Source: a virus
Lineage: Duplodnaviria > Caudoviricetes
DNA length: 64,000 nt
Reading direction: 5' to 3' (one strand)
Virus record (IMG/VR): IMGVR_UViG_3300032233_002826
Span: 54,532 to 118,531 of that record
Part shown: piece by piece, positions 1-34,558 of the stretch
Numbering within the stretch: the first letter of the stretch is position 1
Layout: every line of letters starts with the position of its first letter
The notes under the pieces: model-generated
Databases searched by the model: none
The model's input: only the letters and a program-made list of their open reading frames with translations
Told to the model about the DNA's origin: nothing
Position numbers and translations under genes: made by a program

Positions 1-1090
1 ACCCAATTATTTTACCATTTTTTATTAAATCTATAACATCAGAAATGTTTATTTTTATTGCCCCATATGTTTCTATAAAAGTATTCAACTTGTGATAATC
101 TAAAATGCCAATTCCATTATAAACAAATTCATCTACACGTTGTTTGGTTTTGTACAAAAATTGACCTAATGATAGTCCACAATCATTAGGTGTTGGTGGC
201 ACATAAAGATTTTTACCCATCTTATTTAAAAAAACTTTAAACTTTTGATTAAATAAAACATTTAATCCACAACCACCTACTATTATAAAATTATCAGATT
301 TATCCAAATAAGGTGCAATTAATTCCATCATAATTTCCTCGAAAACATATTGAGATGTTGCTGCTAAGTCGCAACTATCTTCACCACTTAAATTATTACA
401 CTCTAAATTCAACCCAATATTTCTACCCAAAAAATACAAATCAGAACAGTGATGTATATTTTTTCTACCTAAATAATACTCTCTAAAAGGTTCTACCCAC
501 ATTTGCTTTACCTTGCCGTATGCACACAATCCCATAACTTTACCTGCATAGGCTAAAGAGTCTCTTGGGTTACCTCCCCCATCACTTATTTCAGATATCG
601 GACAACCAATTCTTCCATATGAAACCCCTAAATTATAATTTTCACTTGAGATTAATTTAATTTCATCATCTTTAGCGTGGAAAATATTTGTAAATGATAT
701 TATATCGTAATCATGTCCTCCTCCGTCAGCAGAAATTATAATTGCATCATTAAAATCTGATGAAAAATAACCTGAAGAAGCGTGAGACATATGGTGGCCC
801 ATCTGTTCGAATATAGCATTTGGGAAGTGTTTTGATAATAATGTGAAATCTTCCCCAAATAAATTATTATATATAATTAATTCAATATCATTTTTAATAT
901 GTGTTTTGATGTGTTTTAAAAAATTTTCTCTATTTTCGTCATCATTTTCATAACCACCGTATTGTTTGGTGAATACCGCATATCTAACTTTGACAAATCT
1001 TTCATATTCAAAAATTCTTAGTTTACCAAATTTATCAATAAAAGTTACTGACGAATCGTGTGCTCCATATATACTTAATATATTATTCAT
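1..1090 (-). CDS. Carbamoyltransferase (NodU/CmcH family), runs off the left edge
   Basis: Not in the ORF track. Hand translation from ATG at 1090 gives SIYGAHDSS, EYERF, GHHMSHASSGY, ADGGG, GKVMGLCAYG, GGCGLNV and PNDCGLSLG motifs. Confidence 0.85.
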   Translation of the reverse strand, partial: MNNILSIYGAHDSSVTFIDKFGKLRIFEYERFVKVRYAVFTKQYGGYENDDENRENFLKHIKTHIKNDIELIIYNNLFGEDFTLLSKHFPNAIFEQMGHHMSHASSGYFSSDFNDAIIISADGGGHDYDIISFTNIFHAKDDEIKLISSENYNLGVSYGRIGCPISEISDGGGNPRDSLAYAGKVMGLCAYGKVKQMWVEPFREYYLGRKNIHHCSDLYFLGRNIGLNLECNNLSGEDSCDLAATSQYVFEEIMMELIAPYLDKSDNFIIVGGCGLNVLFNQKFKVFLNKMGKNLYVPPTPNDCGLSLGQFLYKTKQRVDEFVYNGIGILDYHKLNTFIETYGAIKINISDVIDLIKNGKIIG

Positions 1091-1105
1091 ATTTGCAATA
1101 GATGC

Positions 1106-1975
1106 CTAATTATAATATTTACTTATTATTTTTTTATAAGTTTCAATAGGATAATTGGCATATTCTATTTTTCTATTATCATAGTTTAATAAATATTCCA
1201 CTCCTCCTATTTTCAATTTCTTAATGTTATTTCCTAATAATTCACATAATCTTTCTAGTCTATAAGTGCCAGATTGTGTTCCATAAAATATCAACAACAT
1301 AAGAATTTGACTTTCGTCTAATTTAGAGAAATCAATATACTTAGCAGTTTCTTCAAAAGCATCTACATAATTTGATATCGATTCTAATAAAACACTAGTA
1401 TAATGATCACTTATTCTTGGTATTTCATCTTTTAATAATTTCGCCAAATTAGTGACTGTTTTATCTGCATGGTACTCATATTTTTTTGTTAATGGAGCAA
1501 TTACAGCATGATCTGGCAATTTGCCGAAATGATCTTTCAATGCATTCAAATAACCGATTTGATCATAATCATCAGCAAAAAAATTAAATAATCTTAATAA
1601 ATCCAAATATGAAAGATTGCTTTTGTTTACTATTTTCATTAAAATTTGTATCAACTCACGCCCACCTCTTCCATAGGCATAACATAATTTGATCAAATTA
1701 ATAATAACAACTGCTCCGCTATAATGCCCGTGAGCAAATTGGAATTCTTTTTTAAATTTCAATAGTTCTTCTAATTCCTTAGTTCTTGAATTAATTATCA
1801 ATTCTTGAACTATACCATAAAAATTATTAACAAGTCTTTTCTTGTTATCAGGCAATGAAGAAAAATGCTTGTAACTAATATCATCAGATAATTGCAAGAA
1901 CATATCAAATATAGGTTGTCCATATATCTTGGAATTATCATTTTTTATTTTTTCAAATATTTCATCTTTGGTCAT
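1106..1975 (-). CDS. Hypothetical protein; N-terminus paralogous to 4151..5104
   Basis: 289-aa ORF; MTKDEIFEKIKND..IYGQPIFDMF resembles MNKDKIWQQIKND..IYNEPILDIF. Confidence 0.7.
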   Translation of the reverse strand: MTKDEIFEKIKNDNSKIYGQPIFDMFLQLSDDISYKHFSSLPDNKKRLVNNFYGIVQELIINSRTKELEELLKFKKEFQFAHGHYSGAVVIINLIKLCYAYGRGGRELIQILMKIVNKSNLSYLDLLRLFNFFADDYDQIGYLNALKDHFGKLPDHAVIAPLTKKYEYHADKTVTNLAKLLKDEIPRISDHYTSVLLESISNYVDAFEETAKYIDFSKLDESQILMLLIFYGTQSGTYRLERLCELLGNNIKKLKIGGVEYLLNYDNRKIEYANYPIETYKKIISKYYN

Positions 1976-2077
1976 AAAATTATATATGATGGAATATGGC
2001 GTAATTGGCCCCGGTCAACCACTACTTTTTTTATCAAAATATCACTATATAATTTTACACTAATCTAGAGGTTATTT

Positions 2078-2590
2078 ATGAAAAGTTTTAATGAATGGGT
2101 CAAAGATCATGTCGTTAATGAAATATCAGCAGAACTCCTACTAAGAGCATCAAACCAAGCAGCAAATAAATCAACATTACGACCATCAGATCAAATATCC
2201 AAAGATCGCGTTGAAAAATTCAAACAAGCAGCAATCGATAGAACATCTGAAACAATCATAAAAAATGAAAAAACAGGGGAAATTAAACCAATAAAGATCT
2301 TAAGAGTTTATCACGCTAATGCAATAGGTGAAGATTCGTTTGTTATGGTAACAAATGAACAAAAATATGTTGTAGACCTAGCATATCACACAATCAGTTT
2401 TCTAACTAGTATGGGCAAGGCCGCACACTCTATAGAAAAAGATGCAGATAAATTTCAAATAGAAATAGGAAACGCAAGAGAACTTATTGATAAAATTAAT
2501 AATGCTGGGTACCAAAGCAATCAAGAATATATGCGCAAATCAGCAAAAACTTATAAATACCAAGACTTGCCACTATTTAGAAATAAATAA
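2078..2590 (+). CDS. Hypothetical phage protein (MKSFNEW-type N-terminus)
   Basis: 170-aa ORF with GAGG RBS; N-terminus of a type common in large myovirus proteins. Confidence 0.7.
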   Translation: MKSFNEWVKDHVVNEISAELLLRASNQAANKSTLRPSDQISKDRVEKFKQAAIDRTSETIIKNEKTGEIKPIKILRVYHANAIGEDSFVMVTNEQKYVVDLAYHTISFLTSMGKAAHSIEKDADKFQIEIGNARELIDKINNAGYQSNQEYMRKSAKTYKYQDLPLFRNK

Positions 2591-2595
2591 CCCAA

Positions 2596-3264
2596 ATGCT
2601 TGATGCAATAATAATAAGCGATACTCACCTTGGAAGCGATGTTTGCGAAAGTAAACAATTATACGCTTTTTTAGAATTAGTTTATAATAAAACTCATAAA
2701 CTTATTATCAATGGAGACTTCTTTGATAATTTAGATTTTCGTAGACTAAAGAAAAATCATTGGAAAATATTATCATTGCTTAGAAGAATGAGCAAATATG
2801 TTGAAATAGTCTGGATAAGAGGAAACCACGACGGCGAAGCAGAAACCATTTCTCACCTTATTGGATTAGATTTTAAAAATGAATACCAATTTCAAAGCGG
2901 AAATAAACAAATATTATGCTTGCACGGTGATAAATTTGATGATTTTATATATAAATATCCCAATACCACAAAAATAGCAGATATAGTTTATAGAACCATA
3001 CAACGGTTTGATAAAAGATTTTTGCCCCAATTTATTAAGCAAAGATCAAAAACCTACCTAAGATGCAATGAAAATATGATGAAAAAGTCTAGAGAATACG
3101 CACTGTCTAAAAATATTGATTGTGTTTGTTTAGGACATACTCATCATGCTATTATAAATAAAGATCAACCAATATGGTACGCCAATAGCGGATGCTGGAC
3201 AGAAAAAAATTGCACCTATCTAATTATCAAAGATGCACAAGTAGAATTACAGACTTTTAAATAA
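2596..3264 (+). CDS. Calcineurin-like metallophosphoesterase (LpxH-like)
   Basis: SDTHLG, NGDFFD, RGNHD, HGD and GHTH motifs. Confidence 0.85.
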   Translation: MLDAIIISDTHLGSDVCESKQLYAFLELVYNKTHKLIINGDFFDNLDFRRLKKNHWKILSLLRRMSKYVEIVWIRGNHDGEAETISHLIGLDFKNEYQFQSGNKQILCLHGDKFDDFIYKYPNTTKIADIVYRTIQRFDKRFLPQFIKQRSKTYLRCNENMMKKSREYALSKNIDCVCLGHTHHAIINKDQPIWYANSGCWTEKNCTYLIIKDAQVELQTFK

Positions 3265-3323
3265 GAGAAAGTACTATTGCATTTTAAATTGATTATAATC
3301 TACACAACAGCCATACATGAGTC

Positions 3324-4154
3324 ATGTCCAATAAAAAATTAGCAATATGCACAACAATAAACAAGAATTATGCAGACTATGCTGTTGTTTGTTTACAATC
3401 TTTTAAACGTAATTCTGGTCTGACTTCTGACCTATTTGTTTTTGTTAATCAAAATTATCTAAATCAAACTCAAATAGATAATTTTAAATATAATGATATT
3501 ACCATCATAGATGTAGACTTTTCTAATAGATACAATCTCCCGACCGACTGGCCTTATCCGTCAGAATGTTTTTGGATTTTTAAATGCCCAGAGATATTAT
3601 ACTCTTTAGGATATGATTATGCTTTATGTGTAGATACAGATACATACTGTAATGCTCTCTTAAATTTGGAATTTATTGATGATATACAATTTGTCGCAGG
3701 AATAGATGCAGCGAGAACTAACGAACAATTTTTAAAAGCAATAAATCAATTAGGCGAATTGACAAGTCTGTTTTTATTACAACAAGATAGATTAAATCTA
3801 AAATCTACAAATACTGGAGTATTACTATTTAATAATAAATATTGCTATACTATTAATTTTGAAGAAAAAATATATCAAATATTTAAAAAAAGTATGGATA
3901 ACAATATTCCAAGAAAAGGAGATGATTCTTTGTTTTGTTTATATTGTTCTATTTTTGATGCTGGTATATTATATATTGATGAAAAATTTAATGACTATAG
4001 ATATGACAAAACTCAAAATATTAATTCTTTCAACGAACCTTATATAATTCATTATATATCTGATAGAAAACCTTGGAAAACTAATATTAATAATTTAAAT
4101 ATCAAATGGAAAATTTTATATAATGATCTATTTGAAAGTGTGAATAAAATTTAG
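3324..4154 (+). CDS. Glycosyltransferase, GT8-like
   Basis: DTD (DxD), NTGVLLFN and IIHY..KPW motifs. Confidence 0.75.
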   Translation: MSNKKLAICTTINKNYADYAVVCLQSFKRNSGLTSDLFVFVNQNYLNQTQIDNFKYNDITIIDVDFSNRYNLPTDWPYPSECFWIFKCPEILYSLGYDYALCVDTDTYCNALLNLEFIDDIQFVAGIDAARTNEQFLKAINQLGELTSLFLLQQDRLNLKSTNTGVLLFNNKYCYTINFEEKIYQIFKKSMDNNIPRKGDDSLFCLYCSIFDAGILYIDEKFNDYRYDKTQNINSFNEPYIIHYISDRKPWKTNINNLNIKWKILYNDLFESVNKI

Positions 4155-5104
4155 AACGGAACTTCAGCGTCTGATTGTTTATCTAATCCTGAATTAGCAA
4201 TTTTAGCCTTTTCTTTAAAATAAGAAACAATTCCTTTTGGATGAGAATTTTCCTTATCAGAATATGGCCTTCTTAATCCCCCCGTACCGGTCGATCCCAT
4301 TGAACTAGTTCGAGGCATAAAGGTAAGTTGAGATTCTGCTGAAATGGCTAAGTCATTATAAATTTTAATGCATCTTTCTATAGGCTCTATAGATTCTAGG
4401 TTTTTTGATAAGTAATCTAAAATCTCCATTTGCCTTTTATATAAAGCATTCTGGAACTCTTCGTCGCGACCACGTTTGACTTCAGCGGAACCTGGATACT
4501 CTGCGGCCCTAAGATCATTATTTAAAATCTCTTGCATAGCCCAGGAAAGAATAACCTCAGGATCTAAAGTATAATTCCATGAAGAACCTCTTTTATATTT
4601 TTCTACTAAATATTTTATAATATTTATATTGCCATTTTGTATCGCTCCTTCAAAAACAGAACTAACTACATATCCCTGAGGAGGCGGCAACACATCGTCA
4701 AACTGAGGATCCTCTTTTTCTTTATATTTTTTATCAAGCAAATAACTAACTGTTTTTAAGTCCCCAACCTTTCCAGCAGCACGCAAAGCAGGAAGATGAT
4801 AAATGCCCGTTTCTTCAACAAAAAATTTAATAAGATCAAAATTATTATCTCTTACAGCCTTTTCAAATACTTTATGTAAGTTTTCTTTGGCTCCATCACG
4901 AACAGCATTCTTAATATCAACAGAATCCGTAGAATACTTTAGCCTTACCTCAGGATTAGCAATCTTCTTTTGATCTTTAGTTAATTCATTATAATGATTT
5001 TCTGATAATTCCTTGTTTAATTTAATAAAAATATCAAGTATAGGCTCATTATAAATTATTGTTTTATCATTTTTTATTTGTTGCCAAATTTTATCTTTAT
5101 TCAT
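4151..5104 (-). CDS. Ankyrin-repeat-like protein
   Basis: Repeated AVRDNNFDLIKFFVE / AAGKVGDLKTVSYLL / AIQNGNINIIKYLVE. Confidence 0.65.
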   Translation of the reverse strand: MNKDKIWQQIKNDKTIIYNEPILDIFIKLNKELSENHYNELTKDQKKIANPEVRLKYSTDSVDIKNAVRDGAKENLHKVFEKAVRDNNFDLIKFFVEETGIYHLPALRAAGKVGDLKTVSYLLDKKYKEKEDPQFDDVLPPPQGYVVSSVFEGAIQNGNINIIKYLVEKYKRGSSWNYTLDPEVILSWAMQEILNNDLRAAEYPGSAEVKRGRDEEFQNALYKRQMEILDYLSKNLESIEPIERCIKIYNDLAISAESQLTFMPRTSSMGSTGTGGLRRPYSDKENSHPKGIVSYFKEKAKIANSGLDKQSDAEVPF

Positions 5105-5355
5105 ACGAAATTAATTTAATAGATGAGAAACCTTTTTATATATTGTAATGGAACCAAAGATTAATAGAAAACCATTATAATTGCAGAGTTTTTATTTTTG
5201 CTACAAAGTATTTTATAATTTAATATGGTTTATTATAAAAAAGGGGAGCGATAGTGTGGCGACGGGGGTGGCAGGGGACCCAGCCCTCAGGTTTTTCAAA
5301 AATAATTTTTGTATTTTTATTTTTGCCACAAAGTATTTTGAAACGGGGTTTAAAT

Positions 5356-15299: not shown

Positions 15300-15923
15300 A
15301 AAACTCTTTCTTTATAGTGGGCTATCGACACATTATTGTAACATTCTACACGGGATTTTATTTGCGTCAATCGTCGATTTCTACCAGAAAACCATCCTCA
15401 CCCTCTTTCAGATTGGTATAGATAACAATCTGTCCATATTCATCTGTTGCTATCTCAACCCACGATGGCAGAAAGTTCTGCATACTAACCCGTAAATCTT
15501 CTAGTGTCATATTGTCCATACAATCGCCTTTCAGTGTGATGGAAACAGCCCTTACGCAGAGATCATATTCAACTATAATATTTGATGGACGCTTGGCTGA
15601 TGGCGGAGCGAGTCTTTTGACGCTTGGGACGACTATCGTGCTGGCCGCTGCCAGAGCGGTGCGCAGAGTGGCCTTTGCCCAACTTCCAAATCGGCCGCAC
15701 ATTGAGTTTGATTTTCATTTTAATCACATTACATAATAAACGGCGTAACCATTTGTTACCATAGAGATTGCCTCGCTCTCTGGTAATCTCACAATAGAAC
15801 CGCGAGAAATGTTCTCAAAGTCCCGAATGAACTGAACGCGGTATCTCATTGGTTGATCCTCTACTACCTAACATTCTACATGGGATTTTATTTTAGATAT
15901 ACCGGCTGTAAATGGATCGACTT

Positions 15924-16001
15924 AGTGGGCGACGGGATTTGAACCCGCAACTCCTCTTGTATTTAAACAAGTGGAACTCTAACCGATTGAGTTACGCCCA
16001 C
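15924..16001 (-). tRNA. tRNA-like RNA with enlarged anticodon arm, identity undetermined
   Basis: Normal acceptor, D and T arms; anticodon arm CCACTTGT-TTAAAT-ACAAGAGG is 22 nt instead of 17. Confidence 0.7.
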
Positions 16002-16022
16002 CGATAGTTTTACGATAAGTGT

Positions 16023-16130
16023 CCGGTATCACGCACCTACCAACCCGATACCTTTCGGGTATCTAGGTTTCTATCCGACCCCTGTTTGTAATCAGCGAAT
16101 CTTTTACGCCCCGATTCTTACCCGCACCAG
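16023..16130 (-). ncRNA. Candidate structured RNA
   Basis: Closing stem CTGGTG/TACCGG, GAATC/GATTC stem and GATACC hairpin with GAAA loop. Confidence 0.4.
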
Positions 16131-16132
16131 TA

Positions 16133-16221
16133 TGGAGCGACCATACCGATTTGGAACCGACCACGCCCGCTTCCGTCAAGTTGCGAACTTGCTCAGGCGA
16201 GAGGCATCGGCTACTGATTGT
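16133..16221 (-). pseudogene. Degenerate tRNA-like element ending in CCA
   Basis: CAAG-TTCGCAA-CTTG anticodon-like hairpin, weak T-arm, mismatched acceptor stem. Confidence 0.4.
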
Positions 16222-16223
16222 AT

Positions 16224-16360
16224 TGGAGCGTGTGTCGGGGATCCAACCCGACAGAGAGCAGCATAAGCCTTACCATAGCCTAGTTCGGCAACCCCATACA
16301 CCCCTTAGATGCAGACGCTGTTTGCTGGGCTATCTCTACGGTATCAGCAGATACACACGC
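16224..16360 (-). ncRNA. 137-nt tRNA-like RNA with encoded CCA
   Basis: Perfect acceptor GCGTGTG/CACACGC-T-CCA, T-arm TCGGG-TTGGATC-CCCGA, very long central arm. Confidence 0.65.
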
Positions 16361-16412
16361 AAGTTTGTTTTACAGTTCTATAAGAGCCTATTCTGTTTTT
16401 TTATAAGCCAAA

Positions 16413-16642
16413 TACGGTTGGTTATTCCGCTACCTTTACGTCCACCATGCTCTGGCAAGACATGGCTAAGGACGAGTTTGTACGGGCGGGTGGGTTCGCT
16501 TTGGATTGTCATTGGGTATCCTACTACCCTCGATCTGGAGCTTGACCACCTACTTCACTGCCCGGCTTTCCATCGTAGGAGACAGTCAGCCATTGAGGAG
16601 CCGCTCACTGCGGCCTAGCAGCCCGTTTTGTTTCGACAATCC
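16413..16642 (-). ncRNA. Unassigned structured ncRNA, copy 1 (core 16482-16642)
   Basis: Begins right after motif A at 16647; helices covary with copy 2. Confidence 0.75.
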
Positions 16643-17129
16643 TATGACATTCTACATAGGATTTTATTTTTTGTCTAGGGAAGGACTCTGCCTTTCAGCG
16701 GAGTCCTTCCCTGTTGCCGCCACAAATCACGCCTAATCTAGTCCCTCAGCATGGACCCACGGATGTTTGTGTGGGAGTCACATCTTTATTATCCCACATC
16801 CCCTCTAAAATATAAATGCAATGCACAAGTTTATTTCACCTTGCGAGGGTTTCGCCGCCAGCGTCCCGGCGGGTTATTGTTAGGGACGGATGGATTCGTT
16901 TTAGGTTGTCAACAGTGTGCTATCACCTCGACCCACCACTTGACCATCTACTTCACTGCCCGCCTCCCCATCATAGCAGACGGTTTGGCATTGAGGAGTT
17001 GCTCATGCAACCTAGCAGTCCCTTTGTTTCGACAATCCTATGACATTCTACATAGGATTTTATTTTTTGTCTAGGGAAGGACTCTGCCTTTCAGCGGAGT
17101 CCTTCCCTGTTGCCGCCACAAATCACGCC
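16627..17129. repeat. Identical 107-bp direct repeat at 16627-16733 and 17023-17129
   Basis: Contains terminator-like hairpin, motif A and the 5' end of the ncRNA. Confidence 0.92.
16741..17038 (-). ncRNA. Unassigned structured ncRNA, copy 2 (core 16882-17038)
   Basis: Begins right after motif A at 17043; helices covary with copy 1. Confidence 0.75.
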
Positions 17130-28409: not shown

Positions 28410-28492
28410 GGGCGAATGGGTGGAATCGAACCACCTCCTGTAAACACACAGTCGTGTGTGTGCTTACCTGCTACCATTACATCACATTCGCC
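28410..28492 (-). tRNA. tRNA-like RNA with 11-bp anticodon stem
   Basis: GGCGAATG/CATTCGCC acceptor, canonical T-arm, GTAAGCACACA-CACGAC-TGTGTGTTTAC arm. Confidence 0.7.
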
Positions 28493-33869: not shown

Positions 33870-34154
33870 AGATTCGTAATTCATCTAACTACAAAACATT
33901 CTAACTTATTTTTTATTTTCTTGGGTTCATGAAAAATTTGATCGCCCTTAATTTTTAATATACTATTTTTTAATTCAACAATAATTTCATCGGCCTTAAC
34001 AACACATTCGCCATCCTTGTAAACCCTAATCATTTCCATGATTTTTCCTCTGGATAAATACTAACCCAAGCCAATTATTATAACAAATTGATAAGATAAT
34101 ATCAAATTTTAAAAAGAATAAAGATAAATTATAAATTATTTTTAATTTGTGCAG

Positions 34155-34241
34155 CGGAATCTGAGGGATTCGAACCCCCGGAGGATTTTATACCTCGGCG
34201 GTTTAGTAAACCGCTGCCTTAAACCACTCGGCCAAGATTCC
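34155..34241 (-). tRNA. trnS: tRNA-Ser(ACT)
   Basis: Ser-type body with long variable arm and G73; GCGGT-TTACTAA-ACCGC. Confidence 0.85.
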
Positions 34242-34481: not shown

Positions 34482-34485
34482 TAAG

Positions 34486-34558
34486 TGGAGAAGATGGGAC
34501 TCAAACCCACAACCTCCGCGTTGCAAACGCGATGCTCTATCAATTGAGCTACTTCCCC
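34486..34558 (-). tRNA. trnA: tRNA-Ala(TGC)
   Basis: Loop TTTGCAA; G3:U70 pair. Confidence 0.9.

Follow-up and report, generated by a model that had tools for sequence, protein, structure and literature searches.

Evidence for a conserved gene encoding a non-decoding, tRNA-shaped RNA in freshwater phages

Comparison with described tRNA-like RNAs

Phage-encoded look-alikes of tRNA have been known since RNAC and RNAD of phage T4, and none of them has a known function (PMC9697503). The nearest described analogue of the element reported here, a 137-nt RNA gene in a 64,000-nt stretch of phage DNA (hereafter the window), is T4 RNAC (species 1 RNA, rnaC, 139 nt; NC_000866 70908-71046). Both belong to the same size class, are phage-encoded and lie in a tRNA/ncRNA transcription unit, and both have a T-arm directly before a terminal stem that joins the two RNA ends, with long hairpins at the place of the anticodon arm. 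However, the T-loop of T4 RNAC is the canonical TTCGAAT, its terminal stem is imperfect, CCA is not encoded, and the predicted fold shows no pseudoknotted head like that of the element. When positions 68000-76000 of T4 were searched with R1, a covariance model that we built from 12 homologues of the element, no match was found at E<=10.

With canonical tRNA (RF00005) the element shares a 7-bp acceptor stem, a 5-bp T-stem with a 7-nt loop, the absence of any base between these two stems, and a discriminator followed by CCA. In contrast to tRNA, a 7-bp helix with a 75-nt head stands where tRNA has its anticodon arm (a 5-bp stem with a 7-nt loop containing U33), the D-loop G18G19 is missing, C56 is replaced by G56, and with 0-1 nt from the long arm to the T-arm there is no variable loop. 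RF00005 gave no match to the window copy or to four relatives even at E<=10, and ARAGORN at default settings was silent. The initial annotation had proposed a check against family models of tRNA, tmRNA and Y RNA; at the same threshold Rfam 15 holds no family for these sequences, the group I intron models included.

A further comparison is offered by Y RNAs of the YrlA type, which are likewise non-decoding RNAs imitating the tRNA elbow. In YrlA the Ro-binding stem is built from the two ends of the RNA, with the tRNA-like part lying internally, whereas in the element the RNA ends are the acceptor stem; there is no match to Rfam, and no TROVE/Ro gene was found in five phage records. We found no published name for the family in a comparison to which a catalogue of 10,006 candidate viral RNAs (PMC10690425) did not belong. 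A tRNA body that is kept by compensation and combined with an almost invariant knotted head offers a clean case among the phage tRNA look-alikes. We are confident that the stretch is a real, conserved gene for a non-decoding, tRNA-shaped small RNA, and the evidence for this is set out below.

Fold and conservation of the RNA

The window is the right part (G000:C1:54532-118531) of a 118.5-kb IMG/VR virus record with a CheckV completeness of 23%. Its gene content is phage-like, with an SNF2 helicase, a DUF2201/VWA protein together with an ATPase, and several PHROG families, and all 15 tRNAs called by ARAGORN lie on the minus strand. The GC content is about 28% at positions 1-5200, rises to 40-50% near 5 kb and returns to about 30% past 44 kb. 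The RNA gene is read on the minus strand (16360->16224) and is located inside an ORF-free RNA cassette behind a promoter-like site. This strand, which the initial annotation had left unstated, is supported by several invariant G-U pairs that fit the minus strand only.

Scans of public contigs with words from the element yielded at least 16 homologous loci with 12 distinct sequences among them, located on eight IMG/VR contigs of 14-251 kb and eight metagenome contigs. This count is a lower bound for the family: the metagenome scan returned at least 119 pattern loci, most of which were chance matches in coding DNA and eight of which were true members. The homologues are 83-94% identical to the window copy; their flanks, on lake-phage contigs, do not align at the DNA level.

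The structure was evaluated as 51 pairs on the alignment of the 12 sequences, a narrow sample with a mean column identity of 91%. In this alignment 97.7% of the cells are paired and 11 pairs have changed on both sides, a level reached by none of 500 shuffles, while slid controls gave 30-46% paired cells. The folding energy of the single sequence is ordinary (RNAfold, z = -0.86), so the support for the fold is comparative rather than thermodynamic. The coordinates of the features are collected in Table 1.

Table 1. Features of the RNA gene and its immediate surroundings (positions in the window)
Feature	Position	Strand	Basis or remark
Whole tRNA-shaped, pseudoknotted RNA gene	16224..16360	-	Model R1, 150.6 bits; 97.7% paired, 11 compensatory pairs
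Promoter-like site of the cassette, TAGACA-17-TAGAAT, within the 25-fold repeated motif	16649..16677	-	Motif scan
Upstream spacer AAAACAAACTT (AATACAAACTT in relatives)	16361..16371	-	Directly before position 1; kept in all homologues
Acceptor, 5' strand GCGTGTG	16354..16360	-	Pairs with 16228-16234; 4/7 pairs change on both sides
Hairpin 1 at the D-arm position, GTATC-TGCT-GATAC, UGCY tetraloop	16341..16354	-	93% paired, 2 compensatory pairs
Closing helix of the long arm, 5' strand CGTAGAG	16334..16340	-	Pairs with 16252-16258; 98.8% paired, 2 compensatory pairs
Head, 75-nt pseudoknotted domain replacing the anticodon stem-loop	16259..16333	-	Most columns invariant in 12 sequences
S1, ATAGYC/GRCTAT	16333-16328 with 16280-16275	-	C-G to U-A
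S3, CAGCA/TGCTG (proposed)	16327-16323 with 16263-16259	-	Invariant sequence
P4 hairpin	16319-16290	-	No covariation
S2	16289-16283 with 16273-16267	-	One pair as C-G, A-U and U-A
Closing helix of the long arm, 3' strand CTCTCTG	16252..16258	-	Pairs with 16334-16340
T-arm TCGGG-TTGGATC-CCCGA, G not C at loop position 56	16235..16251	-	98% paired, 1 compensatory pair
Acceptor, 3' strand CACACGC	16228..16234	-	Perfect 7 bp with the 5' strand
Discriminator T and encoded CCA	16224..16227	-	Sequence; CCA in 5/12 family members
Downstream spacer ATACAAT (AATACAA type), then next RNA module	16217..16223	-	Sequence comparison

A four-way junction joins acceptor, UGCY hairpin, long arm and T-arm and leaves 0-1 linker bases, as against linkers of 2, 1 and 4-5 bases in tRNA. 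G16354 can open hairpin 1 instead of pairing in the acceptor, and the closing helix of the window copy contains one U-C mismatch; all helices of the family layout are present in this copy (four-way junction, UGCY hairpin, TTGGATY T-arm and invariant head). The stems of the body drift with compensation, while the T-loop TTGGATY is invariant in the 12 sequences and the 75-nt head on the closing helix is almost so. Inside the head S2 crosses S1, and the crossing makes a pseudoknot. As S3 and P4 show no covariation, the comparative support covers the fold of the head only in part.

Several elements of this layout had been recognized in the initial annotation: the perfect 7-bp acceptor, which on the minus strand reads GCGTGTG/CACACGC and is followed by discriminator T and CCA, and the T-arm with loop TTGGATC, whose 5-bp stem lies beside the acceptor. 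Its overall conclusion of a tRNA-like RNA with a non-decoding role also agrees with our data, since acceptor, T-arm and junction are kept by compensation and an anticodon arm is lacking. Other parts had to be revised. The D-like hairpin TCTGC/GTAGA that had been proposed is paired in 50% of cells in the 12 homologues, no better than slid controls. The insert had been drawn as one interrupted hairpin of about 60 nt closed by TGCATC/GGTGTA; ATAGCC/GGCTAT and TGCATC/GGTGTA are indeed present, and the former covaries, but the layout as such is wrong. It had overlooked the 7-bp helix that closes the insert and the pseudoknot within, and the supposed 21-nt variable region is really the 3' half of S2, S3 and the closing helix.

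Further candidate pairings and frames were considered and discarded. RNAalifold suggested the pairing TAGC/GCTG, which was dropped for ATAGYC/GRCTAT, as the latter shows two-sided change. The pairing GAGCAGC/GCTGCTC was rejected as GAGCAGC belongs to a separate upstream module, and a short frame ATG CTG CTC... after AAGG, running through the T-arm, was rejected as the changes in the T-arm are RNA-type compensations. A descriptor with a perfect 7-bp acceptor, an adjacent 5-bp T-stem, a loop starting TT and N-CCA finds one site in the window, the element; it was composed after the fact and matches three of 200 block-shuffled windows.

The knotted head recalls tmRNA, whose tRNA-like domain likewise combines an acceptor/T-arm module and a 3' CCA with a long helix leading to a pseudoknotted domain. 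Moreover, the element contains a short open frame that ends in a hairpin loop, and tmRNAs usually have GCA as their resume codon and place the stop in a hairpin loop. If the RNA were a minimal relative of tmRNA, the frame GCA AAC AGC GTC TGC ATC TAA in the head would provide a tag of six codons. It is open in all 12 sequences, with changes in codons 4-5 only and without indels (ANSVCI in 10/12, the window copy included; ANSRSI in one; ANSTSI in one), and its TAA, in the loop of P4, is invariant. However, in codons 1-3 and 6 every position is invariant, a pattern that points to constraint on the RNA rather than on coding. The tag does not carry the usual C-terminal degradation signal, and no SmpB gene was found in the five phage records. 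Unlike tmRNA, the element has no G3:U70 (3:70 is G-C in 10/12 and C-G in two, L012 and L056) and has a paired stem-loop in the D-loop position, and neither the tmRNA mode of ARAGORN (-m) nor the tmRNA models of Rfam find anything. The smallest bacterial tmRNAs are about twice as large as the element. We therefore regard a tmRNA-like RNA as very improbable. Were it one after all, its body, uncharged or bearing an amino acid that is not alanine, would bring the head with its frame into the ribosome, the phage could tag or release nascent chains of the host, and at a length of 137 nt it would be smaller by far than any known trans-translation RNA.

It might also be asked whether the element is a tRNA gene that carries an insertion or an intron, or a tRNA pseudogene in decay. 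Acceptor and T-arm resemble those of tRNA, and the T-arm shares an identical stretch of 17 nt with a tRNA-Met of another phage. In addition, ARAGORN with thresholds lowered to 70-80% calls 'tRNA-His(atg)' at 16224-16299, next to other weak sites; these calls contradict the covarying helices and were rejected. No excision from the head yields a 5-bp stem with a 7-nt loop containing U33. Group I introns are the only kind established so far in tRNAs of bacteria and phages, and the core of such an intron takes over about 200 nt; a 75-nt head is too small for it, and there was no match to Intron_gpI in Rfam. The initial annotation had dismissed tmRNA and a group I intron on grounds of length, and we likewise find neither: Rfam gave no match, ARAGORN was silent and the head has 75 nt. 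Nor would a pseudogene retain an invariant head and 11 compensatory pairs in phages with little else in common. An interrupted or decaying tRNA gene is hardly credible in view of these findings.

Elbow, 3' end and charging

The loop of hairpin 1 always holds G-C, and position 56 of the T-loop is G instead of the C of tRNAs. Among the ordinary phage tRNAs of the same loci, G19:C56 occurs in 61 cases and A19:U56 in the tRNA-Ala of the window and in a tRNA-Gln. In this tRNA-Ala(TGC), at 34485-34558 (-), the T-loop TTTGAGT goes with the D-loop TTGA, and the tRNA-Gln in L104 is alike. In a complete tRNA-Met of another phage the T-loop TTGGATC goes together with a D-loop GC, the same combination that the element has. 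Because the G-C of the loop and G56 are invariant, the pair 19:56 varies among phage tRNAs and a precedent exists in tRNA-Met, we infer that the C of the hairpin loop and G56 of the T-loop form a swapped C19:G56 pair, by which the tRNA elbow would be kept. Such a swapped pair would be a ready experimental handle. The tRNA-like nature of the body is also indicated by model R1, which matches a real tRNA-Thr weakly (19.4 bits), and over its full length.

The 3' end of the RNA varies within the family. CCA is present in the window copy, L067, L187, L153 and, with a shift of one base, L056 (5/12), while the other members end in ACA (L205, L075), ATA (L007, L029), TTA (L213, L093) or TCA (L012). The discriminator is U in 10 of the 12 and G in two. 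The pair 1:72 is G-C, A-U or G-U in eight members, two of them with G-U, and is mismatched as A-A or A-C in four. In this respect the family resembles tRNA genes, some of which encode CCA and others not; in the window none of the 15 ordinary tRNAs does, in line with what the initial annotation had remarked. The window copy has G1-C72, C2-G71, G3-C70 and U73, the same combination as the phage's own tRNA-Gly(UCC), and these are acceptor identity elements of bacterial GlyRS.

These features might suggest that the tRNA-like RNA can be charged and holds its amino acid (glycine in the case of the window copy) ready for use outside the ribosome. In favour are the perfect acceptor of the window copy with its U73, its CCA and its first three pairs resembling tRNA-Gly(UCC), the encoding of CCA by five of the 12 members compared to none of the ordinary tRNAs, and the prevalence of U73. 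But GlyRS also reads anticodon bases, which are missing here, and across the family the mismatches or G-U pairs at 1:72, the replacement of CCA in seven members and G73 in two do not fit such a role. We consider it quite improbable. The varied 3' ends argue against a conserved charging identity, and since CCA occurs in 5/12 only and 1:72 is mismatched in four, charging of the family as a whole appears doubtful. The idea that the RNA is possibly chargeable, which the initial annotation had put forward, does not describe a family trait, but for the window copy, judged by the acceptor features it shares with tRNA-Gly(UCC), charging seems possible. Genes of the PolyA_pol/CCA-adding type (73-82 bits) are found in the source record outside the window (G000:C1:39109-39507) and in a second record (G001:C1:97226-97654 and 123985-124416); none was found in G002-G004, of which G002 is 94% complete.

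Cassette, distribution and possible function

According to the ORF list, the minus strand is free of ORFs of at least 50 aa from the promoter-like site at 16677-16649 to the next such site at 15912-15885. The promoter-like motif AAAATAAAATCCYATGTAGAATGT has 25 copies with up to three mismatches at positions 6529-55981 of the window, mostly on the minus strand and densest at 6.5-25 kb, and none in shuffles. The element is preceded by promoters of three types. This phage has the AAAATAAAATCCYATGTAGAATGT type, G001 and L056 have a TTTGGTACGGT motif that is repeated, and G002-G004 have TTGACA-N17-TGTAGAAT, with about 24 nt from the -10 box to the start of the element in G002.

Every RNA module is bordered by an AATACAA(A) spacer (16361-16371, 16217-16223 and about 16090-16100, minus strand; also in L215, L216 and L217), which may be a processing site or a protein-binding site. 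Right after the CCA follows the next module, 16093-16225 (-), a second tRNA-like RNA with the ends AATCAG/CTGATT (AACCAG/CTGGTT in G002-G004) and an invariant hairpin GAATC-GGGGCGTAAAA-GATTC. A 218-nt contig from a run labelled marine metatranscriptome covers exactly 16093-16225 with about 97% identity and has other flanks. At 15924-16001 (-) lies a tRNA with an 8-bp anticodon stem and the 6-nt loop TTAAAT, reported by ARAGORN as '???'; in its G001 homologue (L217:1341-1419, minus strand) the loop, TTTAAAA, is of the normal 7 nt, and the ARAGORN call is tRNA-Leu(UAA). A 173-nt lake metatranscriptome contig covers 15904-16078 with about 92% identity. RNA-library contigs from relatives cover 15904-16078 and 16093-16225 and not the element, and contigs of this kind cannot show RNA ends; 16263-16509 is covered by a DNA run only. 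Upstream in the cassette there are two diverged copies of an RNA of about 150 nt (16833-17036 and 16481-16640, minus strand), of which L067 has a single copy (L067:10036-10243) with 94.7% identity to the first window copy and 75% to the second. Elsewhere in the window, at 28410-28492 (-), we noted a third tRNA-like sequence with a canonical T-arm TTCGATT, a GG D-loop and a long, fully paired anticodon stem (CACACACAC.../GTGTGTG). A tRNA-Ser with the anticodon ACT (A34) at 34154-34241 (-) is conserved in relatives (L007, L067, L075), and a tRNA-Ile(TAT) is present too.

Within 3.5 kb around the element only RNA modules align to the relatives, and this module alone is common to all of them, with 83-88% identity. 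Model R1 finds exactly one copy per record in five phage records, with 144-165 bits. Three of the compared records lack an orthologue of this phage's SNF2 helicase, and the fourth has a 28% match. One conserved module amid unlike flanks and genes, and behind three different promoter types, indicates strong selection on the RNA, its movement between phages, or both.

A blastn search of the 1.1-kb region against 50,697 phage records had no match, the promoter motif of this phage had no match in viral contigs, and no loci related through the neighbouring 507-aa phosphoesterase were found. An exact scan of viral contigs for the T-arm found solely an unrelated tRNA-Met, and a scan independent of the head (T-loop plus spacer) returned the same contigs again and one chance match in coding sequence. 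Nine pattern matches in 185,579 prokaryotic species (one genome each), the best with 19.6 bits, were read as chance because they are weak, have a broken T-arm and lie on GC-rich MAG contigs. Runs that contain small shares of the words of the whole cassette (15850-17100, not of the element alone) are mostly labelled as freshwater, lake, river and drinking-water metagenomes. As far as searched, the family appears to be confined to uncultured freshwater phages.

The position of the element invites an explanation in cis. tRNAs that are co-transcribed with mRNAs serve as processing signals, and the body might recruit RNase P and 3' nucleases that cut the early polycistronic RNA, protecting or shaping the 5' end of the downstream mRNA or tRNA, while the released RNA itself would have no job. 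This would be consistent with the fact that the element is always promoter-proximal and belongs to a row of modules with AATACAA spacers between them, the last of which spacers in G001-G003 runs directly into an RBS and ORF. However, a processing handle needs acceptor and T-arm only, yet the 75-nt head is the most conserved part in the 12 sequences. Furthermore, the downstream cargo changes, from a tRNA here to different ORFs in G002 and G003, and the module is kept at 83-88% where the flanks do not align. The invariance of the head and the change of cargo weaken this explanation, and we think it unlikely that punctuation or stabilization of the transcript is what the element is for.

The pattern as a whole (a compensated body, an invariant knotted head, one copy per genome and three promoter types) instead points to a specific molecular target over a processing by-product. 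A mechanism can be outlined on this basis. The body fold, the pattern of conservation and the genomic setting were observed, and processing, elbow pair, action in trans and partner are proposals. The element would be cut from the cassette transcript by the enzymes of tRNA maturation, with RNase P acting at G1 and nucleases trimming the 3' end. CCA would be encoded or added; this phage has a gene of the CCA-adding type. Acceptor and T-arm would stack as in tRNA, and the resulting L-shaped body might dock on a host or phage factor that handles tRNA, for example the ribosome, a defence tRNA nuclease or a modification enzyme. The invariant head would then make a specific contact, and the mature RNA would work in trans. 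We put forward this trans-acting mimicry tentatively, as a mechanism whose prospects come close to even. The statement in full, that uncultured freshwater phages carry a family of tRNA-shaped RNAs that acts in trans as a tRNA mimic, might hold with a likelihood slightly short of one half. If the target were indeed the ribosome, an enzyme that handles tRNA or a defence nuclease aimed at tRNA, the family would represent a new tool of phages for host takeover or counter-defence.
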